A stretch of DNA of 64,000 bases from an uncultured Chloroflexia bacterium. Lineage in GTDB: Bacteria > Chloroflexota > Dehalococcoidia > Dehalococcoidales > UBA2162. Both the position numbers and the translations under genes were made by a program. The notes beneath the pieces were generated by a model. It searched no databases and was not told where the DNA came from. It was given only the letters and a program-made list of their open reading frames with translations. The stretch covers positions 16,748-80,747 of the forward strand of contig CAVUCA010000001.1 in the NCBI GenBank assembly GCA_963739865.1, read 5' to 3'. This document shows, in pieces, positions 7,573 through 63,992 of the stretch. Positions within the stretch are counted from its first letter, which is position 1; every line of letters begins with the position of its first letter.

Positions 7573-7573
7573 C

Positions 7574-8080
7574 TTACTTCCTCCCCCGCAACAAGCTGGC
7601 GGCTTCTATCACCGCTTTGATATGTTGCGGATAGCTGCCGCAACGGCAGATATTTCCGGCTAAGGCTTGTTTGATCTCTTCCTCGGTCGGGTCCGGATTC
7701 CTGTCCAACAGGGCTTTTGCGGTGACAATGAATCCGGGAGTGCAGTATCCGCACTGCATGCAGCTATATTTTACATAGGTTTCGATCAGCGGATGTTTTG
7801 CCCGGGTGATGCCTTCGATCGTCTCGATTTTCTTACCGTCGCATTCGATCGCCAGTATCATACAGGAGAGCACCGGCCGCCCCTCCATTATCACCGTGCA
7901 AGCCCCGCAGGCTCCTTCATCACAAAAGGCTTTCGTTCCTGTCAGCCCGAGGACATCGTGGAGGACATATTGCAGCGTCCAGGTCGCTTCCACGCCCGCT
8001 TCATATAAGTCCCCGTTCACTTCCAGCTTGATCTTTGCCTCGTTGAGTAACTCTTTCTTCTTAACTGTCGTCATATTCAA
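7574..8080 (-). CDS. (2Fe-2S)-binding small subunit of Mo-hydroxylase (CoxS-like)
   Basis: 168 aa; plant-type ferredoxin Cys cluster CDEGACGACTVIMEGRPVLSC plus second cluster motif CRCGSY; first gene of minus-strand operon. Confidence 0.9.
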   Translation of the reverse strand: MNMTTVKKKELLNEAKIKLEVNGDLYEAGVEATWTLQYVLHDVLGLTGTKAFCDEGACGACTVIMEGRPVLSCMILAIECDGKKIETIEGITRAKHPLIETYVKYSCMQCGYCTPGFIVTAKALLDRNPDPTEEEIKQALAGNICRCGSYPQHIKAVIEAASLLRGRK

Positions 8081-8297: not shown

Positions 8298-9446
8298 TTA
8301 ACGGTCTCCCCAGGGTAGGACAAAGTCGGGTATGTTCGAGTCCGGTGTAACTGATGAATTAGTTGTCTGGGCTGCCAGGGTGACGTTAATACTGACTGTG
8401 GCACCATCACGTACGATAGTAAGCGTTACCTCATCCCCCACCCGTTTTGTCTTGAGATAACTTTGCAGATCGGTAACTTTGGCGACGGTTTGCCCGTCGA
8501 TTGCGGTGATGATGTCTCCGTCTGAATTCGGAGTACCGTCACGTCCGGTTCCGGCACCTATCAGGCCGGCTTTGTCGGCCGGACTGCCGGAAACGGTTTC
8601 CACTACATATACGCCCTGGTTTACCGTCAGGCCGATTTCTTCTGCAGTACTTTGACTAAGGTCCATACCACTGATGCCCAGCCAAGGTTTGACGATTTTT
8701 TCACCGGCGATCAACTCATCCAGCACTGCTTTGGCTACACTGGAAGGTACCGCGAAACCGATCCCTGTCCCTTCGCCTTCGATTGCCGTATTGATACCGA
8801 TCACTTCACCGTTGGAATTAAGCAGGGGGCCTCCCGAGTTGCCGGGTTGAATCGTGGCATCGGTCTGTATCATCCCGGTTAGTGCACTGCCTTCTACGCT
8901 CCGATTTAAACCGCTGACAATACCGGTGGTAATAGAATTGGTCAACCCGTAAGGGCTGCCGATGGCGATTGCCAACTGGCCTGGTTGGACATTTATTGAA
9001 TCTGCCAGGGTTAGTGGTACGATATTTGCTACCAACGCCGCATCTACTTTGATCAACGCCAGATCATCTTTAGAATCTGTCCCCAGTATTGTTGCCTGTT
9101 CGGTGTTGCCATTGGCAAAGACGACCTGGACATCAGTAGCGTCTTCGACCACGTGGTTATTCGTCAGGATATGGCCTTCCTTATCGACAACAAATCCGGA
9201 ACCTTGTCCTTCCGTGGAAAAAGCACCGAAGCCGGTGGTTTGTGTTTTCACGATGATTTCCACTACAGCCGGGCTGGCAGTATCATAAATACTGGTAATC
9301 GTAGTTTCATTTACCAGCGTTTCATTCGAAGCAGCCGCAGCTTTTTGTAATGGTTCACTCTGATTGTTGGTTATAAGGACGAAAATAGCTGCAGCAACCA
9401 GCAAGACTGATACCGCCGCTGTGAACCGGAGAAGCCATTGCTTCAT
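8298..9446 (-). CDS. htrA: trypsin-like serine protease HtrA/DegP family with C-terminal PDZ domain
   Basis: GSGFVVDKEGHILTNNHVVEDA (His), DLALIKVDA (Asp), GNSGGPLLNSNGEVIGINTA (Ser) catalytic triad motifs; PDZ region; start moved to ATG 9446 (MKQWLLRF...signal/TM) which has strong SD GGAGGAGG; ORF-track start 9500. Confidence 0.85.
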   Translation of the reverse strand: MKQWLLRFTAAVSVLLVAAAIFVLITNNQSEPLQKAAAASNETLVNETTITSIYDTASPAVVEIIVKTQTTGFGAFSTEGQGSGFVVDKEGHILTNNHVVEDATDVQVVFANGNTEQATILGTDSKDDLALIKVDAALVANIVPLTLADSINVQPGQLAIAIGSPYGLTNSITTGIVSGLNRSVEGSALTGMIQTDATIQPGNSGGPLLNSNGEVIGINTAIEGEGTGIGFAVPSSVAKAVLDELIAGEKIVKPWLGISGMDLSQSTAEEIGLTVNQGVYVVETVSGSPADKAGLIGAGTGRDGTPNSDGDIITAIDGQTVAKVTDLQSYLKTKRVGDEVTLTIVRDGATVSINVTLAAQTTNSSVTPDSNIPDFVLPWGDR

Positions 9447-9711
9447 CTCCTTTACCTCCTCCCTTTGATGATTCCGGCAAGCCATCGGCAGCCACTCCAA
9501 TTCCCGTGGAATGGCTGCCGAACCTTGCCACCCCAGGACTCCTTAATATTCGCGTAAAAATGTTTAGGAATTATTAAGAAACTAGAACCGGCATGGTATA
9601 CTGGATTCCTGCCGATTTCACTTGGATAATCGACCATAGTGCACTATTACAACTTCAGTAAATTATTTCGAATTTTAAGAATGGTGTTTATCAATCGGAT
9701 CAAGTAAATAT

Positions 9712-11395: not shown

Positions 11396-11425
11396 GGAGC
11401 GGTCGCTGGACCGCTCCTTTTTTAT
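11396..11425 (+). terminator. rho-independent terminator after AraC-family gene (GGAGCGGTC-GCTG-GACCGCTCC + TTTTTTAT)
   Basis: 9-bp perfect stem 11396-11417 followed by T-tract 11418-11424. Confidence 0.6.
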
Positions 11426-13303
11426 TTCGTCACGATCTTCGCTTTACAGGCGGGGATGATAGCCTGGAGTCCGCAGGTATTGCACGGCCCGTTCCGGCAG
11501 TCATTGGTCTCTTCCGCCCTCAAAGCCCGCTGGTACTCCTCTTTCAGGAAAGCGGGACTTACACCAATATCAATATGCTCCCAGGGTAAAGGTTCATCTA
11601 GTGAACGTTCCCGGCTGGCATAAGAGTCGGGATCGATACCGCATTCGGTAAACGCTTTTTGCCAGATAGCATAGTTGAAATGCTCGCCCCAGGAATCGAA
11701 CAAAGCTCCTTGTTTCCAGGCTTGATATATCACTTTTCCTATACGCCGGTCGCCGCGTGACATCACGGCCTCTAATTGACTGACTTTCGGGTCGGACCAG
11801 GATAATCTGATCGCTTTACGGCGGACGATCTGGTGGAGGAGTTGTTGTTTAGCGGTTAATGCCTCCTCACTTTCCCGTTTTACCCATTGAAACGGAGTAT
11901 GGGGTTTGGGTATGAATGTGGAAAGGTTAACCCGGATCTGGATAGGCCGGCGGCTGACTTTCTGCCCTTCCGTAAATACTTTATTTACGAGATTGCCGAT
12001 TTCCTCAACATCCTCGTTGGTTTCCCCCGGCAGGCCGAGCATGAAATAAAGCTTGAGCCCGCCCCAGCCTTTGGAGAAAGCCGCCGTGGCTGTGGTCAAT
12101 AAATCGTTTTCTGTCACTCGCTTATTGATAGTGCGGCGCATGCGCTCGCTGCCGGCTTCGGGGGCAAAGGTTAACCCGGTCTTCCGGTGTGACGGTAAGC
12201 ATTCCATCAGGTCAACGGAGAAGCTGCCGATATACAGGCTTGGCAAAGATATCGCCAAATCGGGATATTGCTGCGTCAAACTGGTTACCAGTTTCCTGAT
12301 ATCCGAATAATCACTGCTGCTTAAAGAAACGAGGGAAATCTCATCGTAACCGCAGTTCGAAATCACTTCGCCTACTGCACTTAGTACTTCTTCGACCGGT
12401 CTTTCCCGGACCGGGCGGTAAATCGTTCCTGCCTGGCAGAAACGGCAGCCGTTGCTGCACCCTCTTTGTATCTCCACGGCCCCCCGGTCATGGACCACTT
12501 CAATGAAGGGCATGACCGGTTTGGTAACCGGCGGGGGAAGCTGGGGAATTATTCTCCGCTGGATGCGTTCTTTTGCCTCGGGAAATAAAGGTTTTATACT
12601 TTGAAAAAGTCCGTCTGCTTTATATTCGACTTGATAGAGGCTGGGCACATAGATACCGGCGATTTCAGCAAAATGCTGCAGGATATCCTGTCTTGTTTCT
12701 GTCGGTTTACCACTGTCCTTGCGGATCTACCCTGTCTCGTAGTTGCTCGACGATTTCCAGGATGACTTCTTCGCCGTCACCGATGACGAAGAAATCGATA
12801 AAATCCGCCATCGGCTCTGGATTCAATGCACCGCTCCCGCCGGCGATGATCAGGGGATGAGATGCATCCCGGTCCGACGCCATTAATGGGATTCCCGCCA
12901 GGTCCAGCATATTCAGGATATTGGTGTAGGTAAGTTCATGTCCCAGGGAAAAACCGAGGACGTCGAATTTCCGCAGCGGCGTCCTGGACTCCAAGCTGAA
13001 CAATGGTATCTTAGCTTCCCGCATTGCGGCGGCCATGTCAACCCAGGGCGCGAATACCCTTTCGGCAAGGACATCAGGCTGCCGGTTGCAGATATCATAA
13101 AGGATCGGTACTGCCATATTGGACATCCCGATCTCATAGACATCAGGATAAGCCAGTGCGATCCTGATGGGAGTTGCTTCCCAGTCCTTCTTAATGATAT
13201 TCCATTCCCCGCCGGTATACCGTGCGGGTTTATTCACCTGGTGTAAAATACGGTCGAGGTTTTTCAGTTCATTCACGGTTCGGTTATCCATCCAGTTCTG
13301 CAA
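11422..13303 (-). CDS. radical SAM protein with N-terminal B12-binding-like domain (TIGR03960-like family); frame interrupted once (~12705-12715) between ORFs 12707-13303 and 11422-12648
   Basis: N-part: GGEWNIIKKDW...IALAYPDVYEIGMSNMAVPILYD...FDVLGFSLGHELTYTNILNMLDLAGIPL...IIAGGSGALNPEP; C-part: EVVHDRGAVEIQRGCSNGCRFCQAGTIYRP (CxxxCxxC). Second frame read upstream of its first ATG gives GKPTETRQDILQHFAEIAGIYVPSLYQ, i.e. continuous protein; the two frames are offset by one nt within CCGCAAGGACAGTGG. Confidence 0.7.
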
Positions 13304-18845: not shown

Positions 18846-18918
18846 TGCCCCCAATGGAATTCGAATCCATGTCTACACCTTGAAAGGGTGTCGTCCTAGG
18901 CCTCTAGACCATGGGGGC
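18846..18918 (-). tRNA. tRNA-Glu (anticodon UUC), CCA not encoded
   Basis: Minus-strand sequence GCCCCCA-TG-GTCTAGAGGCCTAGGAC-G-ACACC-CTTTCAA-GGTGT-AGAC-ATGGA-TTCGAAT-TCCAT-TGGGGGC-A folds into canonical cloverleaf: 7-bp acceptor, D-arm like E. coli tRNA-Glu, anticodon loop CTTTCAA (TTC), T-loop TTCGAAT. Confidence 0.85.
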
Positions 18919-24375: not shown

Positions 24376-25023
24376 TTAAGGTTGGGCTTGACCGGAATAA
24401 TCATTAGTGCACCGCTCAAACCATCCGGACACCATGCAGATGCTATTTTCCTGTTGCGCCTGGGATTCCCGGCGGGCGGCTGCCCAGGCCCGGATATCTG
24501 CATCCGGTACGGCAAGCTGTTGTGCGACTTCGATGGTACGTTCGGTGACGATGCGGCCGTGGAAATCAAAATGGTCGACCATCGCCTCCACCCCCCGGGC
24601 GATCGCTTCCATACGGCCGGCTGCAGGCGGGACTTGCAGTGCGCCCGGCCGGGGATTTTCTTTCAGTACCGCCTCCACCCGGCGGCAGACATCCTCGATG
24701 GTAAAAGGTTTCACCAGGTAGTCGGCGGCCCCTTTTTTCATCGCCCGCACCACGGTCGCGGCATCGTTGAGGGCAGAAACTATAATGACCGGCAGATTGA
24801 GCCGGGATACTTTTATGATATCGAGCATCTCCAGGCCGGACATCCCGGGCAGCATGATATCCAGCAATACCAGGTCAAAGGAATACCGGGACAACAACTC
24901 CAGGGCCCGGCCGGTATTCACGGCGGTGACACAGGAGCAGTCCCTGGGCGCTAAAATATCGCCCAGGACCTTGCCGACAAGCGGTTCGTCATCGATAATC
25001 AAGACCCTGGTATTCTCAGTCAT
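24376..25023 (-). CDS. response regulator (REC domain + ~95-aa C-terminal region of unknown type), immediately downstream of giant surface-protein gene
   Basis: RVLIIDDEP…DLVLLDIMLPGMSGLEML…PVIIVSAL…DYLVKPF; SD AAGGAG; 63-nt gap to upstream gene. Confidence 0.8.
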   Translation of the reverse strand: MTENTRVLIIDDEPLVGKVLGDILAPRDCSCVTAVNTGRALELLSRYSFDLVLLDIMLPGMSGLEMLDIIKVSRLNLPVIIVSALNDAATVVRAMKKGAADYLVKPFTIEDVCRRVEAVLKENPRPGALQVPPAAGRMEAIARGVEAMVDHFDFHGRIVTERTIEVAQQLAVPDADIRAWAAARRESQAQQENSICMVSGWFERCTNDYSGQAQP

Positions 25024-25086: not shown

Positions 25087-28000
25087 TTAAGCTTTCGATG
25101 CCTGTCTCCGTTTCCTTAACAGTAAGATGATAAGAATGATCACAACCAGGACGATTCCTATGGCTGCAGTAAGTAACCAGTTGATCCTTCCGCTGGTATT
25201 ACCGGAGATAGTAAAGCTGCCAGCCAGGCTGCCGGCCGCTACTTGATAAATACCCGGTTCGTCCCGGACAACGGTAAAAACGACCGTCCGGTTTTCTCCG
25301 GCAGCCAGGTCAACGGCCTTTTCCTCTACAGGTACGCCGTTTATCCGGAGAGCCAGGATATAACTACCCGGGGTACCACCGGTATTTGCCAGCGTAACCG
25401 ACACCTTGATAGTAGAACCGGGGTGGCTTTCCGGTACATCGATAGTTAAGTTCGTGACGGAAAATGCCGCCGGGGCCGGGGCTTGCGGAGCGGTAACGGT
25501 AAAGATTCCGGCCAGGCCGTCGATATCGACATGATATTCACCGGGGATTTCCCGGGTGACGGTGAAGACCACCGTACGGCGTTCGCCCGCAGCCAGGTCT
25601 AGCGGTATTTCAGTTGTTTTCACACCGTTGATCACCAGGATAGAGGTATGACGGCCGGCTGAACTACCGTTGTTGACAACGGCTGCAGTGATGGTAACCG
25701 CTTGTCCGGGGGCAACTGCAGCCGGGGAAACTGATAAAGAGGAAGAAGTAAAAACCGCCGGCGGGATTGAAAGCACCGCAAAAGTAGTGAAGTGGGCGAT
25801 TTCTGCAGTAATGGTATGCCGGGTAGTATCCAAGGTGCAGTCCAGATACATCCAGACCCCGGTAGCCTCATCATAATAAGCCCAAACCAGGGCTTCATCG
25901 GAAATCACGGCAGGGAGGGTATCGTTTGTGTAATCATATTCCAGGACAGCATAAGGACTAAAAACAGCACCGGTAGGCCCGAAGTTATAAGCCGTCCCGA
26001 TGATAGAGGCGCCGGTAGGGGTGGCGGGTGGACTATCGTTTACGGTGCCGGTTAACGAGGCGAGGGGCAGGCCTTTATGATCTCTGGCTTGAGCCCCAGC
26101 CGGGATGGAGAGGGACAAGCGTCCGTCGGCAGACACTAACTTGATGTCGGAAACGGCCTTGCCGTTTAGATCGAGACTATAGAAAGTCCGGGTACCACAG
26201 AAGTCGGCCTGGAGATAATTTACCACCGGCACGGCCGGAAGTGGGGCAGGGAGCAACGACGTAGTGGAGGCGACGTACACCGACATATGGTCGAGCAACA
26301 GGCCGATGGTATACATCTCCCCGGCCAGGCCCAGCACGGTGCCGCCCGGTTCGTAGGCGGTGCCGTCGACCGTTCCTGATTTCCCGGCCAGTTCATAATG
26401 TCCGGTTAGCTTATTCCGGTAATAGATATAAGGCCGGCTGCCGGCGGCTACTGTTACTACGGCGGTGAAGTCCTGGGAGAAACTGACCTGCTGTTCCGGG
26501 TTGCCCATCTCGATCACCACCGCCGTTGGCGGCAGGGTACTTTGCATTTCGGTATCTGGTTTCACTATCCGCGGCGGGTAAATTACACCGCCATAAATCT
26601 GGCCGGCAGCGTCCGTTAAGGCTGTCCCCGGCGGGATAACCACCTCTACCGCCGCTTCCATCCCGGAATCCGGTACGGCCCCGGCCGCAGTGGTCAACGT
26701 CACCTGCACCGGGATAGTGCCTCCCGCCCCCGGTTCGATGATGCCGGCGGTGCTGATCTCCTGTCCTCCTTCAAGCCCGGCCGGCTCCGGGGCCATCACC
26801 GTGTATTTGACGGTGCTAACCGTGTTCGTACCTGCAGCCGTGGTCACCTGTACGTCGTAAGTGCCTTCCGTCAGGGCAGGAAAATCGGCGGTGATGAAAG
26901 TGCTGCTATTAACCGTGAAGCCGGCAGCGGTATGGCCGCTCAAAGCAACCGCGGCAGCCCCGGCGAAATTCGCACCATATAAGCGCACTCCGGCTTGCGG
27001 GTGGCCGCTGACGGCAATGCCGGGTATCAAATTGGTCACCACCGGCAGGGGCTCTGGCAGGGCATGCACGGTGTACGCTGCCGTGCTCAGGAGAGATGTC
27101 CCGTAAGCGTTACTGATACGGACGTAATAACTCCCTGGCGGCGTCCCCGTTGCCACCGTGGCCGTGATTTCGCTGTCGCTGATGACGTTTACGTCTGCCA
27201 GTGACAACACGTTTTCCCGGCCGACCAGACATACTACCGCGGCTCCCCCGGCTGCAAAATTACACCCCGTCGATATGAGGGTCCGGTCCCGGCCGTTGTC
27301 CCCGTCCGGCGGGTTAAGGCCGGTCACCAACGGTACACGAGCGGTAGTGGCCAGGCTGACCACGTTGCTGACAGGCGAGGTGTTCGGTATCTCGTCCTGA
27401 ACTTTGATGGCGAAGTAGTAAAGGGTGCCTGGTTTCAGGCGGCCGACGGTGAACGATTCCGTTTCTCCACCCGCTGCCGGCGATAATTTATTATGTACTG
27501 TGTCGGCGGCAGCGAAGTTGCCGTCATCAATGGGAGAGGTAGACTGTTTGATGATATATTTGCGGGCAAAGCCGGTGTCCCCATCATCTCCGGTGGCGGT
27601 CCAGGTCAATAACACACTGGAAGACGCAGGGTCACCGGCCGAAACAGCCAGACTAGTGACGGCCGCCGGGGCAGTGTGATCGGGCGCATTGGTACTCAAC
27701 GTCGACGCTTCGAGATAACTGATGCCCGACCGCAGTTCGCCGTCGACTACACTCAGCCCGAAATAATATTTCGTCCCCGGCTGCAATCCTTTCACCAGCA
27801 TCTGCTGAGCCGTATTTTCCGGGACCGGTTCACCGGACATACATTTCGCTTTCGTCCAGGTTGCCGGGGTATCCAGGGGCGAGGTGTCATAACGGAAGTC
27901 GTACCGGTCGCCCTTCCAGATACCGCCCCCCGTCCATGCCAATACCACCGCATCACAGGCCGCCTGGCCGGCCGAAGGTGCGGTTGGTGCCTTCAGGTGC

Positions 28001-30333
28001 CACGGGTCATTAACTATATCGCCGCGGCACTGCCCGGCTATTTCAGCTTGATTTACCGTGCCCCACCAGTTGCCGGTAGCATCTACCGTGATACCATCCA
28101 GATTGTTCTCCATGCCCCCCGCAAGGTTGCCGCTGACAGCGGCGTAGTGGACGCTGATCCCGGATGGCACGGTGTTTTGCTTGTCGAGTTGGCCGAAACG
28201 GATACCCACCCGGTTCCCGGTAAAAGTCCCGCCCTTGATGGTTACCCCGGCCAGCGTTGCCGGCCGGCTGCTATAGCTGGCGACGTCCATTCCGGTCCCC
28301 CGTGCTTTCACCGCCAGTCCGGTGCCGTTGTCCGAGCCCACCCCGTTGCCGGTGACAGTCAGGTCATTGAAAGTAAGGTTGGCGTAATCGCCGTACTTCA
28401 GGTTGATATCGATGCCGGCGTTAACGGGATCGGCCCAATCAGGCGACAGGGAGGTATCACCGTTGTCGGTGACGGTAACCTCGTTAAATACGGCGTCGGA
28501 TAATTTTTCAGCATAAAAACCCTTGATGGAGTTGCGGTTGAAAGTGGAACGGTTGATTTCGATATCACGGGCGTTGGTCCCGGTATTGCTGTTATTGAAG
28601 AAGATGATGCCGTAAGCCATGTTTTCGAAGACGGAATCGTTGATGATTACATGTTCGAGGCTGGAAAAATCGTCCAGGAGGACGCCCGACTCGGTGGTAC
28701 CGGAGGAGCGGGTGCCGCAAATGCGGACGTTATCCAGTTCCAGCCAGGAAATCTGTATCCCGGGGCGGGGCAGGATGCCGGGTAATTGTGCCCCGGTAAC
28801 ATTGTCCTGGTGCGTTCGTATCAGCAGTCCTTTCAGCACGATAGGGGAGTCTTCGACGCCCGAAGTGCTGATGACGACAACCGGTTTATAACTGTAAGGC
28901 GAGCCTTTTATCAAGGCTGGCGCAGCCGTGTTCTGCAGGATAGTGCCGGTGATATCATCATGCCCGGCCCCCTGGAGAGTAAGGCGGCGGTTGATATCGA
29001 TATTCTCGTCATAAATGCCAGCCGCGATGGTGATCGTATCGCCGTCGGCAGCGGTCTCAATCGCTTCCTGGATGGAATCGTTAGTATACCAGTCCCAGGC
29101 TCCCGTATGAGCATCGGCAACATAATCGGCCCCCCACCACGGGGAATGGTCTACCCCGGCACTGACGGTAGCGGCAATCTCAGAGCTAATGTTGGTGCCG
29201 AACCAGTTGCCGGTACAATCGAGGACTCCCGTGGCGCCAGCCGGCAGGTAGACATTCAGGTTGGAATTCAGGCTGAAATGATTTCTATTAACGTGTATGA
29301 AATCATGGGTGAAATTGCCCCTGTCATCAGCCACGGCAAGGGCGTTCCAGCAAGAAGTAATGGTATTCCCGGTGACATTCACCGGCCCGGTAAAATCACT
29401 GGCCCACAAAGCAATGCCGCCCTCACCGGAATTATGAGCGGTATTGGCATTGGTGATGCGGTTTTGTGAGATTATGACATCACTGGACGGACTGGCCAGG
29501 TTGATGCCTTTCTTCACGATATTGGTCAGCGTGTTGCCCGAACAAAGAAAATTATCAACGCGGTCCAGATCGATCCCGCCGCAGGTATTCAGCAAGACGT
29601 TCCCGGAAACGGCGCTGTTGGTTATGGAACCAACCTGCATGGCGGCCGCGTCACTGAAATTTTCGAAGCGGTTGTTCCTGATCTGCCAGCCGGAACTACG
29701 CAGGAAGGCATTGCCGCTGGTCTTATAGATGCCCATGGACTTCACACCGTTAGCAAAACCGGTGAAGATATTGTTCTCGATGACCACATTGTTGGTGGTA
29801 ACCGGTGTTCCCTTGGATTTTTCCTGAGCTTGAACGATACCAGCCGTGTTTGTGACATCAGGACGGCCGGTAAAACTAAACCCCTTAATCGTAATATCGT
29901 AGATAACCGGCCCGCCGTCAAAACTCAGGGATATGGTCCGCAGCGGCCAGGAACCGGAATTGTCCGACTGCCAGACAGCCTCGGGATAGCGCAGGCTGGT
30001 GTTGGGGTCAATGTCAACGTTCGGCCCCAGCAGCGTAACCGGTTTGGTGAGGATGATATTTTCGTGATATGTCCCGGCGGCCACGTTGATGGTGGCGCCG
30101 GCCGCCGCCAAATCAGCGGCATGTTTGATGGTAAGCCAGGGGCCGGTGTCTCCGAGGCTCCAATCTGTACTGTTATCAGAATCGGCCCATATCTGAGAAC
30201 CATTGCCGAATTCATTGCTGCCGGCGGGAGAAACGTAACATACATCAGGTACCCAGGCTGAGGCCGGCAGCGGGTTGAGCCAGCCGGTGCATATAATCAG
30301 GGCAAACAAGATTATCAGAAATTTCTGTTTCAT
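25087..30333 (-). CDS. giant secreted cell-surface protein (~1748 aa): signal peptide, right-handed parallel beta-helix repeats, 2x Fn3-like, 2x IPT/TIG, 2x CARDB, C-terminal TM anchor + KRRQ
   Basis: ATG 30333 (MKQKFLIILFALIICTGWLNPLPASA) with SD GGAGGA 7 nt upstream (ORF-track GTG 30348); NNVVIENNIFTGF…QIRNNRFENF beta-helix repeats; CARDB modules (…VTITAAVVNNGSSAGRHTSILVINGVKTTEIPLDLAAGERRTVVFTV…; …VSVTLANTGGTPGSYILALRINGVPVEEKAVDLAAGENRTVVFTV…); C-term WLLTAAIGIVLVVIILIILLLRKRRQASKA. Confidence 0.85.
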   Translation of the reverse strand: MKQKFLIILFALIICTGWLNPLPASAWVPDVCYVSPAGSNEFGNGSQIWADSDNSTDWSLGDTGPWLTIKHAADLAAAGATINVAAGTYHENIILTKPVTLLGPNVDIDPNTSLRYPEAVWQSDNSGSWPLRTISLSFDGGPVIYDITIKGFSFTGRPDVTNTAGIVQAQEKSKGTPVTTNNVVIENNIFTGFANGVKSMGIYKTSGNAFLRSSGWQIRNNRFENFSDAAAMQVGSITNSAVSGNVLLNTCGGIDLDRVDNFLCSGNTLTNIVKKGINLASPSSDVIISQNRITNANTAHNSGEGGIALWASDFTGPVNVTGNTITSCWNALAVADDRGNFTHDFIHVNRNHFSLNSNLNVYLPAGATGVLDCTGNWFGTNISSEIAATVSAGVDHSPWWGADYVADAHTGAWDWYTNDSIQEAIETAADGDTITIAAGIYDENIDINRRLTLQGAGHDDITGTILQNTAAPALIKGSPYSYKPVVVISTSGVEDSPIVLKGLLIRTHQDNVTGAQLPGILPRPGIQISWLELDNVRICGTRSSGTTESGVLLDDFSSLEHVIINDSVFENMAYGIIFFNNSNTGTNARDIEINRSTFNRNSIKGFYAEKLSDAVFNEVTVTDNGDTSLSPDWADPVNAGIDINLKYGDYANLTFNDLTVTGNGVGSDNGTGLAVKARGTGMDVASYSSRPATLAGVTIKGGTFTGNRVGIRFGQLDKQNTVPSGISVHYAAVSGNLAGGMENNLDGITVDATGNWWGTVNQAEIAGQCRGDIVNDPWHLKAPTAPSAGQAACDAVVLAWTGGGIWKGDRYDFRYDTSPLDTPATWTKAKCMSGEPVPENTAQQMLVKGLQPGTKYYFGLSVVDGELRSGISYLEASTLSTNAPDHTAPAAVTSLAVSAGDPASSSVLLTWTATGDDGDTGFARKYIIKQSTSPIDDGNFAAADTVHNKLSPAAGGETESFTVGRLKPGTLYYFAIKVQDEIPNTSPVSNVVSLATTARVPLVTGLNPPDGDNGRDRTLISTGCNFAAGGAAVVCLVGRENVLSLADVNVISDSEITATVATGTPPGSYYVRISNAYGTSLLSTAAYTVHALPEPLPVVTNLIPGIAVSGHPQAGVRLYGANFAGAAAVALSGHTAAGFTVNSSTFITADFPALTEGTYDVQVTTAAGTNTVSTVKYTVMAPEPAGLEGGQEISTAGIIEPGAGGTIPVQVTLTTAAGAVPDSGMEAAVEVVIPPGTALTDAAGQIYGGVIYPPRIVKPDTEMQSTLPPTAVVIEMGNPEQQVSFSQDFTAVVTVAAGSRPYIYYRNKLTGHYELAGKSGTVDGTAYEPGGTVLGLAGEMYTIGLLLDHMSVYVASTTSLLPAPLPAVPVVNYLQADFCGTRTFYSLDLNGKAVSDIKLVSADGRLSLSIPAGAQARDHKGLPLASLTGTVNDSPPATPTGASIIGTAYNFGPTGAVFSPYAVLEYDYTNDTLPAVISDEALVWAYYDEATGVWMYLDCTLDTTRHTITAEIAHFTTFAVLSIPPAVFTSSSLSVSPAAVAPGQAVTITAAVVNNGSSAGRHTSILVINGVKTTEIPLDLAAGERRTVVFTVTREIPGEYHVDIDGLAGIFTVTAPQAPAPAAFSVTNLTIDVPESHPGSTIKVSVTLANTGGTPGSYILALRINGVPVEEKAVDLAAGENRTVVFTVVRDEPGIYQVAAGSLAGSFTISGNTSGRINWLLTAAIGIVLVVIILIILLLRKRRQASKA

Positions 30334-30661
30334 AGATTTATCCTCCACAGACCAGCCTACGGAACGTAAGTCAAACCTGGCTGGGAGGATTCTACAACTG
30401 TAATGATGAACAATCTCTTAACTTCGTACCGGAAAATCTGAACATTGTCTGAATATTTTTAATCACCCTCTCCAGTAATCTGGAGAAGGAACTCTATCCT
30501 CGATGTAGACTGGAAAATTCATGGTAAGGCAGGTGTCCCGTCGGACGAAATCCAGCTATATCTACCCCCGGATCAAGTCCGGGGCAAACTTTTGGAAAAA
30601 GAAGAGGAACCCACGAAACAACCTGAAGCTAGTTTACAAGGTTTGTTGAAACAACCTCAGA

Positions 30662-30733
30662 CACGATTTGAGGCTAAATTCTATTTCCCCCTCACTTGCG
30701 TCTCTTGCCGCGAGGGGCGAGAGCAGAACGAGG
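30662..30733. repeat. conserved leader element (copy A) CACGATTTGA…CTCT..CC-loop-GAGGGGCGAGAG…; homologous to 62184-62246 and 56781-56820
   Basis: Direct alignment of 30662-30733 with 62184-62246 (~75% identity over ~70 nt) incl. imperfect inverted repeat CTCTTGCC/GGGGCGAGAG with compensatory differences relative to TCTCTCCC/GGGGCGAGAGA. Confidence 0.6.
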
Positions 30734-30835
30734 TATTTTTCCTTTTCTAAGGGTAGGCGCGGGGATCTGTCCCTACAAACTAAAAACTGAAATATCAATA
30801 ACAAATCAGTAATAGAAGAAATGTTCGAATAATTA

Positions 30836-30871
30836 TCATGTATAGTACCAGTGTTCTAAGGGTTTGTCAAT
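30836..30871 (-). promoter_or_regulatory. putative sigma-70 promoter + conserved operator-like motif for giant surface-protein gene (minus strand: TTGACA-AACCCTTAGAACACTGG-TACTAT)
   Basis: -35 TTGACA (30870-30865), 17-nt spacer, -10 TACTAT; 26-nt block TTGACAAAYCCTTAGAACACYGG is repeated at 62486-62461 upstream of MATE gene; implies ~500-nt 5' leader. Confidence 0.4.
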
Positions 30872-31064
30872 ACCCCTTTTTAAAAAATACTTAAAAACGG
30901 AGAGGGAACACGGACAATCCCCTGTTGTCCATGAATCACCGCTACCGGTGAGGCGATGCCATTAGCTTATCCGACGCCGCGCTAACAGGGGTGGCAGGTT
31001 TCTTTCCGGAGGGGTGGTACAGTTTAATCCGGAAAACGCACACGGCCGCACCAGTCATACTAAG

Positions 31065-52398: not shown

Positions 52399-54251
52399 AT
52401 GTCACTGACTGGAGGTTACACCGGGAAAATTTTAAGGGTTGATCTCAGTACCGGCAAAATCACGACGGATACCCCGGACGAGGAGACCTACCGCAAGTTC
52501 CTGGGCGGAAACGGCCTGGGGTCAAAATACCTGTACGATGAGATTCCACGAGGTACGGAGTGGTCCGACCCGGATAATCTGCTTATGTTCATGGGAGGGC
52601 CGCTGTCCGGTACCCGGGTAAGCGGCTCCGGTACCTTCTCACTGGTCACCAAAGGTCCGATGACCAACATGGCCGGGCTATCGCAAGCCAACGGTTTTTT
52701 CGGGGCCTTTATGAAGTTTGCCGGCTTTGACGGCATCATCGTTAAGGGTAAAGCCGAACACTGGTCTTATCTTTATGTTCATGACGGCACCGCTGAAATT
52801 CGCGATGCCCGGCACCTGGCGGGGAAAGATACCTGGGAAACCGAAGATGCCGTAAAACAGGAAATCGGGAACCAGTGCAGCGTCTACACCATCGGCCCGG
52901 CGGGGGAGCACCTGGTGCGGTTTGCTGCGGTGATCGGGGACCACGGCCATGCTGCCGGACATAACGGCACGGGGGCGGTGATGGGCGTGAAAAAGCTGAA
53001 AGCCATCGTGGCCGAACGCGGCAAAGGGACGGTGAAAGTAGCCAATCCGGAACTTTTGGCAGAAAAAGCGACGGCCTTGATCGAAAATGCCATCAAACTG
53101 GACCCTATGCTGGAAAAGTGGGGCACCGCTTTTATTTTCCCGCGTATCTACCGGGGCGGGGCATTGCCGGTGAAAAATTACACGACTAATATCTTCCCGG
53201 AGCCGGAGCGGTTCGGCGGCGATGTTATCCGGACCAAGTTCAAAGTCACGACCACGACCTGCTGGGCGTGCCGCATGAGCCACTGCCGGATGACGGAAGT
53301 GACCGAAGGTCCGTATAAGGGGTTTGTCGGTGAAGAACCGGAATACGAAGGCCTGGCGGCGATGAGTTCGGTCATCGGCCAGGAAGACCCCGGGGCGGCC
53401 ATCATGTTAGCCAATCAGGTAGACCGCCTGGGCATGGACATCAACGAAAGCGGTTACCTGATCGGCTGGATCATGGAATGTTACGAGAAGGGCTGCTGAA
53501 GCAAAGCGACCTCGACGGCATGGAGATGAAGTGGGGCGATGCCGAGGCCACGCTCAAGATGCTGAAGAAGATCGCCAACCGGGAAGGCTGCGGCGATTTG
53601 TTCGGGGAGGGCGTGAAACGGGCGGCGGAGAAGGTGGGGGGAGAAGCCCTGGATTGTGCGATATTCACCAAAAAAGGGGCTTCGCCGCGCGGGCACGACC
53701 ACCGGGCGCGCTGGTCCGAACTTATCGATACCTGTTTATCCAATACCGGTACCGTGGAACTCAGCGGCGGCTTCCCGCACCCGGAGCAAGTCGGGCTGAC
53801 GCCCCTGCCGATGCAGGACCAGTTCAATGCTGTGGCGGTAGCGGTGATGAATGCCAAACTCAATGGGCGGCGGCAGTTCGAAGATTCTCTGGGCATCTGT
53901 TTCCTGGGGGCCCAGGACCTGCAGTTGCTTATCGATACCCTGAATGCTGCCACGGGATGGAATTTCGATATCCGTGAAGCCCTGGATGCCGGCCTGCGCA
54001 TCATAAATCAACTCCGGGTTTTTAATTTCCGGCACGGACTGAGTAAAGACCTGGAAGCACCTTCGGCCCGCTACGGTTCGGTCCCGGTCGACGGCCCGGC
54101 GCAGGGGAAAAATATCATGCCCTACTGGGAGGAGTTACGCAGTAAATACTACGCCCAGATGGGCTGGGACGCGGACACCGGCAAGCCGACCCGGGAAACC
54201 CTGGAAAAGTACGGCTTGGGGCATACTTTCTCAGAATTGAAAATACAATAA
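52399..54251 (+). CDS. aldehyde:ferredoxin oxidoreductase (AOR family), paralogue 3; frame interrupted once at ~53493
   Basis: ORFs 52399-53499 and 53478-54251 are N- and C-halves of one AOR: …IMECYEKG|LLKQSDLDGMEMKWGDAEA… is continuous if one C is restored in GGC(C)TGCTG; Cys motif TTTCWACRMSHC. Confidence 0.75.
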
Positions 54252-56780: not shown

Positions 56781-56941
56781 TCTCACTCTAACTCTCTCCC
56801 GTAAGGGGCGAAAGGACTAACGATTCGGGTTCGCTCCTTCTCCCTTTGATGGGAGTCCCGACTCATCCTATTCGTACGGGATGCCATATAAATGGGTCGA
56901 CTCGCAGTCGAAGGAATCGGCAAAGGCCGGGATGAGGGTGA
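56781..56941. repeat. copy B of conserved hairpin-module element, interrupted by ~62-nt internal insertion
   Basis: 56781-56866 aligns with 62203-62280 (CTCTCCC…GGGGCGA.AG…CCTTCTCCCTTTGATGGGAG) and 56922-56941 (AAGGCCGGGATGAGGGTGA) aligns with 62280-62298; 62 nt between have no counterpart; lies between convergent gene ends. Confidence 0.55.
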
Positions 56942-58243: not shown

Positions 58244-59810
58244 TTACCCGCCGAGGATAGCCTTCATATCTGCTTCCGGTGTAGAAATCGGTTTGATATT
58301 GAATTTCTCCACCAGGACCTTTAGGACGTTGGGCGAGATGAAGGCCGGCAGTGAAGGCCCCAGGTAGATATTCTTGATGCCCAGCGAAAGCAGGGTCAGC
58401 AGGATAGCCACGGCTTTCTGCTCATACCAGGAAAGGACCAGGGTCAGCGGCAGGTCGTTGACGCCGCACTTGAAAGCACCGGCCAGAGCCAGGGCGACCT
58501 GGATGGCCGAGTAAGCATCGTTGCACTGACCCATATCCATGATACGGGGCAGGCCGCCGATCTCACCGATATTCAGGTCGTTAAAGCGGTACTTGCCGCA
58601 GGCCAGGGTCAGTACCACGGTATCGGCCGGGGTTTTCTTGACGAAATCGGTATAGTAATTGCGACCGGGTTTGGCGCCGTCACAGCCGCCCACCAGGAAG
58701 AAGTGCTTGATGGCGCCGGATTTCACGGCGTCAATGACTTTATCGGCCACGCCCATGACGGTATTGCGGGCGAAGCCGGTGGTAACCTCGGTGCCGCCGT
58801 TGATGCCGGTGAATTGCTTGTCTTCCGGCCAGCCCCCAGCTCCAGGGCTTTCTTGATGACCGGGGAGAAGTCCTTCTTCCCGTTCTTTTCCGGGATATGC
58901 TGTACACCGGGATAGCCCACCACTGAGGTGGTAAAGATGCTATCGATATAGGATTTCCCGCGGCATCATGATGCAGTTGGTGGTAAAGAGGATCGGAGCA
59001 GGCAGATTGGCAGAATTCCTTCTGCTGGTTCTGCCAGGCGGTGCCGAAGTTGCCCTTGAGGTGGGGGTATTTCTTCAGTTCGGGATAGGCGTGGGCGGGC
59101 AGCATTTCGCCGTGGGTATAGATATTGATGCCTTTCCCTTTGCTCTGTTCCAGCAGCTCTTTCAGGTCGAGTAAATCATGGCCGGTGACGACGATGAAAG
59201 GCCCTTTTTCGACCTTCAAAGTGACTTTGGTAGGGACGGGATGCCCATAGGTGGAGGTATTGGCTTCATCCAGCAGGGCCATGCATTTCAGGTTGACCTG
59301 GCCGAATTCCATGATCAGGGACAACCACTCATCCACACTGTGATTCTCACCCACCGCCAGCAACCCCTTGTAGAACCAGCCCGAGACCTCAGGATCGTCT
59401 TTACCGAGGACATGGGCGTGCAAGGCATATGCCGCCATGCCTTTCAGGCCGAAGATGAGCGCCGAACGGAGCGAGGTCGTATCCGTCTCGCCGTGATACA
59501 GGGCTTCGGTGTCATAGTCGGCGCTGCCGCCGAGTTTCGCCTTCTCTTTGGCTACGGCCTCGCGGTATTCATCGATGCGGGCGGGGTCGAAGTCCACATT
59601 CGTCAGGGTGGCGAAGAGGGCCTCCATCACCAGGACATCGACTGCTTTCCCGGGTGATCTACCTTTGGCAGCCCGGGCCAGGCCGATCAGGGCCGCTACC
59701 AGTTGGTCTTGTTTATGGGCGACTTCCGGTTTCTTACTGCAGACACCGACCTTGGTACAACCGGTGCCCCCGGCAGTTTGTTCGCATTGAAAACAGAACA
59801 TTTCAGCCAT
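58244..59810 (-). CDS. hcp: hybrid-cluster protein / hydroxylamine reductase Hcp; frame interrupted twice (~58985 and ~58840; ORFs 58740-59810, 58723-58923, 58244-58756)
   Basis: [29 protein letters not shown] (N-terminal cubane Cys cluster), …[14 protein letters not shown] | …[30 protein letters not shown] | …[35 protein letters not shown]…; second shift lies in a C5 run (GGCCAGCCCCCAGC). Confidence 0.8.
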
Positions 59811-60613: not shown

Positions 60614-61999
60614 CTAAAGGCGTTTTTTCATCCAGCGGCCGGTGAAGAAGTAGGCCGTATATGCGGCCGTACTGATCAAAGCACTGATGATCATCGCCCA
60701 GCGGATGCCGTAGATCTCCAGCCCGGTGTGTTGTGACAACCAGAAAGCCAGGGGAAGCTGCACGGCCCACATAGTGACGATGCTGACGATCATATTCGGC
60801 CAGGTATCGCCGGCCCCGGCGATGCAGTTTTGCAGTATCATGGCGAAACCGGAGATCAGGTAACCGGCGGCGGCGATGCGCAGGAAGGCAGCCCCCAGGG
60901 ATATCAGGCCGGCCTCGCTGGAAAAGATGCCGATGATACTTTCCGCCCACAGCAGGATCACGGCGGCACAGACGGCCATGAAGATTTCTACTAAGGCGAC
61001 GGCCAGCCAGGCGCTTTTCTTCGCCCGGGCAGGTTGTCCGGCCCCGAGGTTCTGTCCGATGAGGACGCCGGCCCCGGTACCAAGGCCCATACCGGGGACG
61101 AAGAGGAACATTTCCACCCGGCCGGCCAGGCTGTGCGCAGCCAGGGCCAGGGTCCCGAAGGGGATGATCAGCCGCATCAGGAGCATGCTGCCGAAAGCCC
61201 CCTGGATATTCATGGCCACGGCGGGGAGGCCGATCTTGAAGATGCGCCAGATGATGTTCCAGTTGATACGCAAGTCCTGCGGGATAAGGCGGATGCGGGT
61301 GCGGCCACGGAACATGACCCAGATGATGGCGATAGCACCCAGTACCTGGGCCAGCACATTACTCAAGGCAGCCCCGCCGACCCCCATGCGGGGGAATACC
61401 CAGAGGCCGAGGACGAGGAAGGGGCAAAGTGTCACATGAATAACCCGAATGCCCGCTTCGATGATCATGGGGGTGACAGTATCACCGGCAGCCTGAACGG
61501 CGTACAGACTCATCATCAGCAGTTCCATGCCTACCCAGCCGGTCAACATCACCCGCAGATAAGCCGTCCCCTGGGCGACCACCGCCGGTTCAGTACCGAA
61601 TAGGCCTAATACTTTTTCCGCCAGCAGCAGGCCGATAACCGTGATGGCGGTGCCGAAACATGCCCCGAGTATGAGGGCCTGTCCGGCCACACGGGCAGCC
61701 TCCTGCGGGTTGCCGGCGCCGATATAACGGGCGATCATCGCCCGCACCCCGGTGAGGATACCCATATCCAGCGAGAAGACCATCATGACGATGATGTTGG
61801 CAAGGCCGACACCGGCGATAGCGTCCGAACCCAGCTTCCCGATCCAGATCATATCGACGATCTGGCCGGCCGTCCACAGCCCTTCCATGAGCACCATTGG
61901 CCACGAAAGTAAAAGTAAGTTACTGATGACGGAACCTTTGGTCCAGTCTTTCTGGCGAAGACTGGTTTTGGGGGCTGGGGCGGTGGTTTTCGACGCCAT
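60614..61999 (-). CDS. MATE family efflux transporter
   Basis: 461 aa, 12 predicted TM helices, N-terminal MATE signature region (…ISNLLLLSWPMVLMEGLWTAGQIVDMIWIGKLGSDAIAGV…). Confidence 0.85.
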   Translation of the reverse strand: MASKTTAPAPKTSLRQKDWTKGSVISNLLLLSWPMVLMEGLWTAGQIVDMIWIGKLGSDAIAGVGLANIIVMMVFSLDMGILTGVRAMIARYIGAGNPQEAARVAGQALILGACFGTAITVIGLLLAEKVLGLFGTEPAVVAQGTAYLRVMLTGWVGMELLMMSLYAVQAAGDTVTPMIIEAGIRVIHVTLCPFLVLGLWVFPRMGVGGAALSNVLAQVLGAIAIIWVMFRGRTRIRLIPQDLRINWNIIWRIFKIGLPAVAMNIQGAFGSMLLMRLIIPFGTLALAAHSLAGRVEMFLFVPGMGLGTGAGVLIGQNLGAGQPARAKKSAWLAVALVEIFMAVCAAVILLWAESIIGIFSSEAGLISLGAAFLRIAAAGYLISGFAMILQNCIAGAGDTWPNMIVSIVTMWAVQLPLAFWLSQHTGLEIYGIRWAMIISALISTAAYTAYFFTGRWMKKRL

Positions 62000-62183
62000 G
62001 ATTTGCAGTATCCTTTTTTTCAGGTGCGTTAATGGTAGCAGATAGGAGGAAAAAGATAAATGGGAGATAAAAACTCAAAGAAATAAGCGCAAAATTCAAA
62101 GCAAGTACCAGATACCAGGGGAAAAATGATCCTCTGTTATGACTGGCGGGACCCCGGTCAGCCCTTGAAATAACAATCTCAGG

Positions 62184-62405
62184 CACGATTTGAATCTGAT
62201 TCCCCTCTCTCTGACTCTCTCCCACAGAGGGGCGAGAGAACTAGCGTTCAAGGTTAGCCCCTTCTCCTTTTAATGGGAGAAGGCCGGGATGAGGGTGACT
62301 AATAATCCACAATTACTACCTCTCTCCCGCACTAGAGCTAGAAGACCATCAATCTCGTGGTTAGCCCCTTCTCCCTTTGATGGGAGAAGGTTGGGATGAG
62401 GGTGA
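62184..62405. repeat. conserved leader element copy C: core (62184-62246) plus two tandem hairpin modules TTAGCCCCTTCTCC(C)TTT(G/T)A(A)TGGGAGAAGG..GGGATGAGGGTGA (62254-62298, 62361-62405)
   Basis: Direct sequence comparison with 30662-30733 and 56781-56941; modules contain perfect 9-bp inverted repeat CCTTCTCCC/GGGAGAAGG. Confidence 0.6.
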
Positions 62406-62451
62406 AAACCTGGAATTAATACTTATTATTTTATAAACTAACTCGGGTTCT

Positions 62452-62486
62452 TATATGATAGCGCCGGTGTTCTAAGGATTTGTCAA
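62452..62486 (-). promoter_or_regulatory. second copy of promoter/operator-like motif (minus strand TTGACA-AATCCTTAGAACACCGG-CGCTATCAT), upstream of MATE gene; overlaps last codons of histidine-kinase gene
   Basis: 24/26 identity with 30871-30846 block; -10 candidates CGCTAT (17-nt spacer) or TATCAT (19 nt). Confidence 0.35.
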
Positions 62487-63884
62487 GACTGACTGACGGC
62501 CTTACCCGGCAGATAAACCGTGAACGTGCTGCCCTTGCCGGACTTACTTTTCACCTCGATGCGGCCGCCGTGGAGTTCGGCGATGCGCTTGCAGATGGCC
62601 AGCCCCAGCCCCGCCCCCCCGTCTTTCTCCATTCCCTCCTGCTCCACCCGGTAGAACCGTTCGAAGATATGGGGCGAGGTGCTTTGCCGGGATGCCGATG
62701 CCGGTATCGCTGACGGCTGCCAGGAAAAAGCCGTCCTCCTGCGATAACGACAGCGTGACCGTGCCCCCGGTGGGGGTATAACGCACGGCGTTGCCGGCCA
62801 AGTTGAGGAAGCACTCCCGCAGGCGGGTCTGGTCGCCCCGGATACGGAAATTCCCGGCCATTTCCGGGATATCGGTGTGGAAGATGATGCCCTTTTCGGC
62901 GCACAGCCCGGCAACCCCCGCCGCGATATCTTCCAACAATTCCTTAAGGTCGAATGCTTCTTTGATAATACCGCTGCCGTTTTCCGAGCGGGCCAGGAAT
63001 AAGAGCCGGTTGGCCATCGCCGAAACATGGGTGATTTCACGGGATACCGTTTCCAGTGCTTTCTGGTACTCCTTTCCGCTTCTACCTTTAGTTAAAGCCA
63101 GGCTGGCTTCCGCCTGGGCGATCGCCAGTGGTGTCCGCAGTTCATGAGAAATGTCGGCCGTGATCTGGCGTTCGGCATCAAAGGCATTCTCCACCCGGTC
63201 GAACATCTGGTTCATAGAAGTTGCTAATGCCCCTAATTCATCTTGACGGCCCACGTCGAACCGTCCTTTCAAGTCTTTCACCGTCATTTCCCGGGCGGCC
63301 CGGGTGATCGCCTGCAGCGGCTGCAGCATGCGCCAAACCAGGAAGAAGCCCAATATGCCGGCTGCCAGTAAGGTAATGCCGGCAGCGATGATAGTCGTAC
63401 GGCGGAAGATACCGGTAAGCGATGCCTGGCCGGTATCGGATTGAGTAGCGACTACCAGTTTCCGGTCGGCGGGGTCGTTTTTCGAGATGAAAAGGTAAAG
63501 CCACATCCCCTCCCCGTCCGTATTACCGGGGCCGGTGAGGAGATTCCGGTCAACCAGGATCGGCTTCCCGCCGAAAACTTCTATCTTCACCGTAAGGTTG
63601 TCCGCTGCCGACTCCAGTAAACGGAAAACCGGGATCTGCATCCCGGTGTATCCGGTATCTACTCCCATCTGGCCGGTAATGCTGGTAAAACCGTTGATGC
63701 GGCCGCTGCCATCCGCTAAAAAGGCGATATCGGCGATGCGCATATCATACGGTGTGACGATGTTCCGGGATAAACCTTCGACTAAAAAGAAGTAGCTGGA
63801 GATACCGAATAAGGCTACCAGCACCGTCACGATGAAAAGGTACCAGGCGGTAAGCCGGAATTTGATATTGTTAAAAATTTTCAT
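62483..63884 (-). CDS. sensor histidine kinase (2 TM, periplasmic domain, HAMP, HisKA, HATPase_c); frame interrupted once at ~62700
   Basis: ATG 63884 ([23 protein letters not shown]…) with SD AGGAAAG; H-box [13 protein letters not shown]; N-box [11 protein letters not shown]; G-boxes …[13 protein letters not shown]|[39 protein letters not shown] continuous if one C is removed from CTCGCCCCAT run; ORFs 62544-63929 + 62483-63040. Confidence 0.75.
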
Positions 63885-63921
63885 CTTTCCTGAGGTTGTC
63901 AGAAAACTAAAATTAACCCCC

Positions 63922-63992
63922 ATTCCCACGGAGGTGGGAATCCAGAGTCAGGCACAAAATCAAGCATCTGGACTCCCGATCGAGTCGGGAGT
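63922..63992. repeat. pair of short GC-stem hairpins (ATTCCCAC-GGAG-GTGGGAAT and ACTCCCGA-TCGAG-TCGGGAGT) plus third GTGGGAAT at window end
   Basis: Perfect 8-bp inverted repeats at 63922-63941 and 63972-63992; motif GTGGGAAT recurs 63993-64000. Confidence 0.4.

Follow-up and report, generated by a model that had tools for sequence, protein, structure and literature searches.

Why do a large surface-protein gene and a MATE efflux transporter gene each have the same promoter-like block far upstream, on the minus strand of one stretch of DNA from an uncultured Chloroflexia bacterium? The stretch, hereafter the window, comprises 64,000 nucleotides (nt) of contig CAVUCA010000001.1 (GenBank assembly GCA_963739865.1, positions 16,748 to 80,747) and comes from a member of the Dehalococcoidia, a group of abundant, mostly uncultured subsurface bacteria. 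To our knowledge, few promoters or operators of Dehalococcoidia have been characterized, and regulation in the phylum is almost unstudied. The block is real and not a product of chance. The description that suits it best is a duplicated sigma-70-type promoter whose spacer resembles an operator, and in which the copy before the surface-protein gene (site A) is intact and the copy before the MATE gene (site B) has a degraded −10; a duplicated promoter with a possible repressor site is, in itself, a fairly ordinary regulatory feature. The overall explanation that we find best, and to which we give about as much belief as doubt, is that the two blocks are paralogous copies of a lineage-specific sigma-70-type promoter module with an operator-constrained spacer.

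The repeat and its promoter anatomy

In a search of the window with the degenerate 23-mer at up to three mismatches, TTGACAAAYCCTTAGAACACYGG was found on the minus strand only at 30870-30848 and 62486-62464; no match arose in 100 dinucleotide shuffles of the window. The two copies agree at 21 of 23 core positions, and at 25 of 29 with the −10 hexamer included; repeat finding aligned them at 84% over 32 nt (family D15), in direct orientation and 31,616 bp apart. An identity of 24/26, given by an earlier reading of the sequence (the first-pass annotation), was thus approximately right. Its spacing of ~450-500 nt to the minus-strand start codons at 30333 and 61999 is borne out by the measured distances, which are 537 nt (site A) and 487 nt (site B) when counted from the start of the −35 hexamer to the A of the ATG, or ~500 and ~450 nt from the predicted transcription starts.

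Repeat and promoter anatomy can be read directly from the letters, and from them site A is predicted to be a near-consensus sigma-70-type promoter. The promoter scanner scored it as TTGACA-17-TACTAT with a TG upstream (10/12); the predicted transcription start is near 30835. Among the promoter-like sites listed for the window it shares the highest score, and it alone joins a perfect −35, a 17-nt spacer and the upstream TG. The A/T-rich tract abutting its −35, TTTTTAAGTATTTTTTAAAAAGGGG, resembles the UP-element consensus of E. coli. Elsewhere in the window, other near-consensus sites of the form TTGACA-17-TAnAAT lie 20-110 nt upstream of genes, which indicates that this organism uses canonical promoters.

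The first-pass annotation had assigned both copies a consensus −35 and a plausible −10; the former is present twice (TTGACA), and the latter survives at site A only. Site B instead has CGCTAT at 17 nt, without the critical −12T and −11A, and the scanner calls no promoter there; a TATCAT further downstream would need a 20-nt spacer. Site B is therefore probably weak or inactive in this genome, and any start near 62451 is predicted to be weak. Its −35 contains the TGA stop codon (62485-62483) of a histidine kinase gene that ends there.

What, then, does each copy control? The promoter and terminator scan of the window found no terminator-like site between site A and the surface-protein gene, and no promoter-like site of at least 9/12 nearer to that gene, so that site A is its only credible promoter. 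The gene itself (ATG at 30333, GGAGG 8 nt upstream) has only three database homologues, all distant, the best of them at 47% identity and from another phylum, and orthologues of the neighboring Band-7 gene (90-97% identity) are not followed by it. The scarcity of homologues and the absence after Band-7 orthologues suggest that the surface-protein gene was recently acquired. They also fit site A as a derived copy, and we infer that copying ran from site B to site A.

The case of the MATE gene is different. Two related contigs (L007 and L009), whose MATE proteins are ~80% identical to that of the window, lack the motif and yet conserve the ~100 nt directly upstream of the MATE start, ATCTGCTACCATTAACSCACCTG included. 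MATE expression thus probably does not depend on the site B promoter, and the proximal region (62000-62100) probably holds the gene's own control signals. Further, no intrinsic terminator was found by scanning the site B leader, so that transcripts of the kinase operon may also extend into MATE. The suggestion that identical promoters serve the surface-protein and MATE genes is weakened on two counts, the degraded −10 at site B and the MATE-proximal region that motif-less relatives keep. Control of MATE from site B appears doubtful; the two genes may be co-regulated, though in this genome that is doubtful as far as MATE is concerned.

Under the explanation that we prefer, a module made of the −35, a constrained 17-nt spacer and the −10 would have been copied. 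Site B would be the older copy, its −10 since mutated from TA to CG in the window, and MATE would most likely rely on its conserved proximal region, on read-through from the kinase operon, or on both. The intact site A would drive the surface-protein gene through a ~500-nt leader of hairpins like repetitive extragenic palindromic (REP) elements, ending in a hairpin that may sequester the ribosome-binding site (RBS). Coordinates are collected in Table 1.

Table 1. Features of the two sites and their neighboring genes. Positions are those of the window; all located features are on the minus strand.
Feature	Position (strand)	Sequence or elements	Remarks
Search-string form of the promoter-block motif		TTGACAAAYCCYTAGAACACYGG
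Site A promoter block	30842..30870 (-)	−35 TTGACA 30870-30865; 17-nt spacer; TGn 30850-30848; −10 TACTAT 30847-30842
Site A core	30870-30848 (-)	TTGACAAACCCTTAGAACACTGG	Followed by TACTAT; block ends at 30842
Box 1, site A	30844..30857 (-)	AGAACACTGGTACT	7/8 of GAAC-N4-GTTC core; overlaps −10
Box 2, site A	30814..30827 (-)	CGAACATTTCTTCT	7/8; about +8 to +21 from predicted start
Terminator-like hairpin of Band-7 gene, then A/T-rich tract	30871..30923 (-)	Hairpin 30923-30903 + T run; tract TTTTTAAGTATTTTTTAAAAAGGGG	Tract abuts −35 of site A
REP-like hairpin, site A leader	30687..30723 (-)	CTCTCGCCCCTCGCGGCAAGAGACGCAAGTGAGGGGG	Family dispersed in related genomes
Block 3, site A	30650..30671 (-)	TCAAATCGTGTCTGAGGTTGTT	~200 nt downstream of promoter block
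Predicted RBS-sequestering hairpin	30340..30390 (-)	AUCCUCC pairs with GGAGGAU	GGAGGAU is the Shine-Dalgarno sequence of the surface-protein gene; hairpin falls within the part unchanged in strain variant L012
Large surface-protein gene	25087..30333 (-)		1748 aa; signal peptide, beta-helix, fn3 and CARDB domains, C-terminal membrane anchor
Site B block	62458..62486 (-)	−35 TTGACA 62486-62481; spacer as at site A with 2 transitions; degraded −10 CGCTAT 62463-62458
Site B core	62486-62464 (-)	TTGACAAATCCTTAGAACACCGG	Followed by CGCTAT; block ends at 62458
Box 1, site B	62460..62473 (-)	AGAACACCGGCGCT	6/8 of core
Box 2, site B	62438..62451 (-)	AGAACCCGAGTTAG	7/8 of core
REP-like hairpins, site B leader	62202..62405 (-)	Two ACCCTCATCCC..GGAGAAGGGGCTAACC (62405-62359, 62298-62252); one TCTCGCCCCTCTGTGGGAGAGAGTCAGAGAGAGGGG (62237-62202)
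Block 3, site B	62172..62193 (-)	TCAAATCGTGCCTGAGATTGTT	~290 nt downstream of promoter block
MATE-proximal region	62000..62100 (-)	ATCTGCTACCATTAACSCACCTG plus AAGGATAC, for example	Kept in relatives without the motif
MATE efflux transporter gene	60614..61999 (-)		461 aa
Histidine kinase gene	62483..63929 (-)		HAMP/HisKA/HATPase; frameshifted near 62677 by one extra C

Conservation in related genomes

Homologues of the MATE and Band-7 genes come mostly from metagenome-assembled genomes of Dehalococcoidia and other Chloroflexota. Positional conservation of the block is seen most clearly in a metagenome contig of the Joint Genome Institute (JGI), L003, in which the core stands with 23/23 identity at the end of a homologous kinase gene and is followed by TACTAT. 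The 5' two-thirds of that kinase gene have ~50% DNA identity to the window and the last ~390 nt ~90%, and the same holds for L007 and L009; the divergence indicates that the block has been conserved across real distance and that L003 is no close strain. The kinase tail upstream of the block and the A/T-rich DNA downstream of it have diverged or carry indels between site B and L003, which makes the block an island of conservation. At the same kinase stop-codon position L007 has a promoter-like TTTACA-17-GATATT, and L009 has no promoter-like site there. These relatives lead us to infer that the clade has long had a promoter at the kinase stop codon.

Site A is known from strain variants (L012-L015), which differ in the block region by one substitution (CCCTTAG to CCCCTAG) and by a 4-nt insertion upstream of the −35 that shifts the register of the UP-like tract. 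More distant MATE homologues (L019-L021) stand in another gene context, where the motif was not found.

The kinase gene at site B deserves separate mention. In the window it is split into two overlapping open reading frames (ORFs), reading CACCTCGCCCC where L003 has CACCTGCCCC, and it may be either a pseudogene or the product of an assembly indel. Its final ~390 nt (the HATPase domain; 62512-62870, minus strand) are 86-93% identical in DNA across L003, L007 and L009, and the 5' parts only ~50-65%; so abrupt a change suggests that paralogous kinases have recombined or undergone gene conversion.

A candidate operator in the spacer

The first-pass annotation had also proposed that conservation extends beyond what the sigma-70 hexamers require, and here the substitution pattern does fit an extra constraint, of the kind that an operator superimposed on the promoter would exert. 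Differences between the copies that have a TACTAT −10 (site A, its strain variant and L003) fall at motif positions 9, 12 and 21. They spare the −35, the −10 and the half-sites of an AGAAC-N4-GTACT box (box 1) that lies over the −10. Box 1 of L003, like that of site A, matches the GAAC-N4-GTTC core at 7 of 8 positions; the reverse complement of the site A box, AGTACCAGTGTTCT, fits RGTACNNNDGTWCB exactly, and the L003 box fits it too. At site B, the TA-to-CG change hits both the −10 and the right half-site of box 1.

Each of the three loci (site A, site B and L003) has a second box downstream of the first; that of L003, AGAACTTATGTTTT, has the same offset as box 2 of site B. In the window, site A is the only place where a pair of boxes of at least 7/8 occurs within 50 nt, and two such boxes in 86 nt have a shuffle P of ~1.5e-4 at site A and 5e-5 in L003. 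We consider that a candidate operator in the spacer is likely to a degree just short of even. In mechanistic terms, box 1 over the −10 and the second, GAAC-N4-GTTC-like box 22-30 nt downstream would form the operator, and a dimeric repressor bound at these boxes would block RNA polymerase.

In Firmicutes and Actinobacteria the LexA motif is GAAC-N4-GTTC, and variations of it are reported from Chloroflexi and Cyanobacteria (PMC4951493); RGTACNNNDGTWCB is the form described for LexA of Nostoc (PMC3091678). Because the boxes resemble both the Firmicutes/Chloroflexi and the cyanobacterial form, a LexA-type (SOS) repressor would be the leading candidate. As reader of the putative operator LexA is a lead only, and we rate it as rather improbable. 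The same low expectation attaches to the most far-reaching version of the idea: that a LexA-type repressor (or another that binds GAAC-N4-GTWC) shuts a very strong promoter module, which was copied before the recently acquired 1748-aa surface-protein gene, so that DNA damage or a related stress might switch on surface remodelling and, originally, a DinF-like MATE pump together.

Several points weigh against an operator, and against the promoter module as a whole. The substitution pattern is thin, as there are only four distinct copies (site A, its variant, site B and L003). The six boxes score 6-7/8 and all fall short of a perfect GAAC-N4-GTTC core; by chance alone, about one single box as good as these is to be expected in each window. 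The idea of boxes was post hoc, formed after the sequence had been viewed. The offset of box 2 differs, at 30 nt in site A and 22 nt in site B and L003. Upstream of uvrA in the distant relative L020 there is no box of at least 7/8, with the caveat that the LexA motifs used are those described for Firmicutes/Chloroflexi and Nostoc and may differ from this lineage's own. ORF scans found no lexA, recA or uvrA in the 64-kb window. Finally, a leader of ~500 nt is atypical where other promoters of the window lie 20-110 nt from start codons, and site A could consequently drive something besides the large gene.

Three further sequences related to the boxes or to the motif were seen. A perfect GAAC-N4-GTTC core, TGAACGCTAGTTCT (minus strand), lies at 62237-62250, where two REP hairpins of the site B leader meet; relatives carry CAAGTTGCTAGTTCT or CTTGATTTCTAGTTCT at this position, so the perfect core may be a chance product of REP variation. 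In contig L011, whose Band-7 protein is 97% identical, a perfect palindrome, AGAACCGGTGTTCA, stands at 9440-9453, ~120 nt upstream of a BON-GroES-GroEL-HSP20 cluster, and could be a stress operator of the GAAC-N4-GTTC type. Near site A, ACCCTTAGAA occurs twice on the minus strand, inside the motif at 30854-30863 and 109 nt downstream at 30745-30754; 4 of 500 shuffles reach the same score, and both copies are altered in L012 (to CCCCTAGAA and GCCTTTAGAA).

Other regulators were considered as well. The first-pass annotation had named the regulator at 24376-25023 as a possible binder, but its product has a receiver domain and no detectable DNA-binding domain. The OmpR-type response regulator that partners the kinase is encoded upstream of it, outside the window. 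Beside MATE, and divergent from a hybrid-cluster-protein gene, lies a gene for a Crp-like regulator; between the two a perfect GTAAC-N4-GTTAC palindrome, GTAACGTACGTTAC, stands at 59883-59896 (plus strand) and is conserved in L009 (near 4733-4746) and L007 (near 12105-12118). We take this to be an HcpR-type arrangement. HcpR was rejected as the motif's own regulator, since in a hand comparison the boxes match GTAAC-N4-GTTAC at only 5-7 of 10 positions. Inspection by eye gave no convincing fit for a MerR-type regulator (19-20-nt spacer, dyad), OmpR/PhoB direct repeats, CIRCE, Rex, Fur or an extracytoplasmic function (ECF) sigma factor.

Alternative explanations

The strongest competitor to an operator-constrained module is plain common descent: a single event, whether duplication, gene conversion or promoter capture, would have copied a short promoter segment, with no shared regulator and no co-regulation. 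The identity of the spacers would then reflect the youth of the copy and not a binding site. We regard this as a serious possibility, perhaps half as probable as the operator-constrained module. Two copies in the window that differ by 2 transitions in 23 nt are what it predicts, and a second colinear segment in the leaders suggests that the original copy was longer; the −10 of site B has decayed, as expected without selection, and no transcription factor could be assigned to the motif among the regulators examined in the window. Against youth, however, the sequence between the shared blocks of A and B is unalignable, which argues that the copy is not very young. L003 keeps the whole 23-nt core despite a kinase 5' part that has diverged by about half and flanks that cannot be aligned, which points to purifying selection on the spacer as well. 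Further, the substitutions spare the half-sites, and independent second boxes are present.

The colinear segment belongs to leaders that the first-pass annotation had called long and conserved, and which turn out to be spacers invaded by REP-like hairpins: besides the promoter block, only this one segment of ~75 nt is common to them. It consists of a REP-like hairpin and TCAAATCGTGYCTGAGRTTGTT (20/22; block 3 in Table 1); its score is 26, where the best shuffle reached 18. Block 3 is kept in the strain variants L012-L014 (21/22), and no match to it was found in the viral contigs of IMG/VR. Two families of REP-like hairpin (ACCCTCATCCCGGCCTTCTCCCATCAAGGGAGAAGGGGCTAACC and TCTCGCCCCTYTGTGGGAGAGAGTCAGAGTGAGGGG) are scattered through the intergenic DNA of the clade. 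They occur in the window at 62252-62405, 56828-56941 and 30687-30723, in L007 at 7463-7915, where the units alternate in a tandem array with a period of ~104 nt, and in L009 at 134-178, 534-622, 3890-3985 and 7180-7770. Hidden small genes in the leaders were considered and rejected: only short ORFs are present, and a similarity of the form KSCLRL.FQ stems from the shared DNA and the REP hairpins.

Leaders of this kind raise the prospect that the promoters instead drive small non-coding or REP-hairpin-array transcripts, with the surface-protein and MATE genes using unrecognized proximal promoters of their own. We think this improbable, and clearly more so than common descent. It would account for the distance, given that other promoters of the window stand 20-110 nt from their genes, and it would suit both the MATE-proximal region conserved in relatives without the motif and the final ~96 nt before the surface-protein start codon, which are identical in the strain variant L012 (as part of a stretch of 131 aligned columns that includes the first ~35 coding bases) where the rest of the spacer differs by ~4-5%. 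On the other side, no Rfam family matches either leader: the sole match in the window at the gathering score is a tRNA (18846-18918), and the leaders give only noise at E values up to 10. Directly 3' of the promoter comes A/T-rich DNA in which site B and L003 show little conservation, no terminator-like site separates promoter from gene, and no alternative site of at least 9/12 stands nearer to the surface-protein gene.

Could the block itself belong, as an end or an internal promoter, to a dispersed repeat or mobile element, whether a miniature inverted-repeat transposable element (MITE), an insertion sequence (IS) remnant or a REP-associated unit, so that its position before two genes is incidental? 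The REP-like hairpins that fill both leaders are themselves dispersed in related genomes, and the order of the two shared blocks is the same at both sites. The first-pass annotation had proposed a genome-wide search for the motif, with many unrelated intergenic copies pointing to a dispersed repeat. Our counts approximate such a search; they cover the window, related contigs and public collections, with the source genome outside their scope. The window holds no further copy at up to 5 mismatches, and in ~102 kb of related contigs the motif occurs only at orthologous positions. Among 185,579 species-representative genomes (one per species) and the JGI metagenomes, a collection that includes contigs of this species, there were only chance matches and L003; the two matches in IMG/VR viral contigs lie in sequence unrelated to site A or B and look like chance. 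Within these collections the motif is thus not a high-copy dispersed repeat, in keeping with the promoter reading of the first-pass annotation, though a larger family of copies may exist in the source genome, a further reservation about the promoter module. No transposase or integrase was found among 48 scanned ORF translations, which comprise most of the larger ORFs of the window. Nor do the two shared blocks form a terminal inversion: by eye, block 3 seemed to be the promoter block inverted (TTGAAACAACCTCAGACAC against TTGACAAACCCTTAGAACAC), but the alignment is no better than those of shuffled queries in either leader, and repeat finding reports no inverted match. A MITE or transposon end was accordingly rejected, and the broader idea of a mobile element is, we think, quite unlikely.

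That the two repeats, being direct and 31,616 bp apart, are attachment-site scars flanking a 31.6-kb integrated island is scarcely credible: synteny contradicts it, as the gene order kinase-MATE-Crp-prismane-DUF4286-cupin-URO-D-AOR runs through site B in the motif-less L007 and L009, no integrase was found between the repeats, and the repeats are not at a tRNA gene.

Relation to known systems

The operator-constrained promoter module has several features of SOS promoters in which LexA boxes lie over the −10 or the start, namely near-consensus hexamers, a 17-nt spacer, TGn, a 14-bp pseudo-palindrome on the −10 and a second one downstream. It differs from them in that no core is a perfect GAAC-N4-GTTC, the leaders are ~450-500 nt long and one copy is without its −10. 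The MATE pump DinF belongs to the SOS regulon of E. coli; no large surface protein is known as an SOS target. LexA boxes in tandem have been described elsewhere, in Verrucomicrobia for instance (PMC4951493).

A second comparison is with putative mobile promoters, defined as at least 50 nt at 80% identity or more in the −150 to −50 zone (Matus-Garcia et al. 2012, PMC3488235). As in those, similar non-coding DNA precedes two non-homologous genes, one of which looks recently acquired, and the flanking genes are non-homologous at both sites (Band-7 and surface protein at site A, histidine kinase and MATE at site B). Unlike those, the similarity here covers 29-32 nt at 84-86% and lies ~450-540 nt from the start codons, so that both length and distance put the block outside the definition. 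REP- or REPIN-like dispersed hairpins fill both leaders, but the promoter block is no hairpin, lies outside those units and is not dispersed in the data covered.

If the preferred explanation is right, a strong promoter and candidate operator copied before a newly acquired surface-protein gene would illustrate regulatory rewiring by promoter copying, and the block offers a concrete sequence with which to find its regulator. SOS-type control of the surface protein, if true, would add a member of an unexpected kind to such a regulon. If, instead, the block amounts to no more than a duplicated promoter of which one copy is decaying, it is a matter of routine annotation.

Other features of the window

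The window is ordinary chromosome of 53% G+C, with genes for acetone-carboxylase-like subunits, three aldehyde:ferredoxin oxidoreductases, a hybrid-cluster protein and several two-component systems. Like the kinase, two of these genes look frameshifted: an aldehyde:ferredoxin oxidoreductase at 52399-54251 (plus strand), with AFOR_C split at about profile position 145 (near 53480), and the hybrid-cluster (prismane) protein at 58244-59810 (minus strand), split near 58750 into 356 + 170 aa where L009 has an intact protein of 521 aa. At least three split genes in 64 kb suggest indel errors or widespread gene decay. At 11422-13303 (minus strand), Radical_SAM_N2 and Radical_SAM core domains are encoded on two adjacent ORFs 58 nt apart, which may be another split gene.

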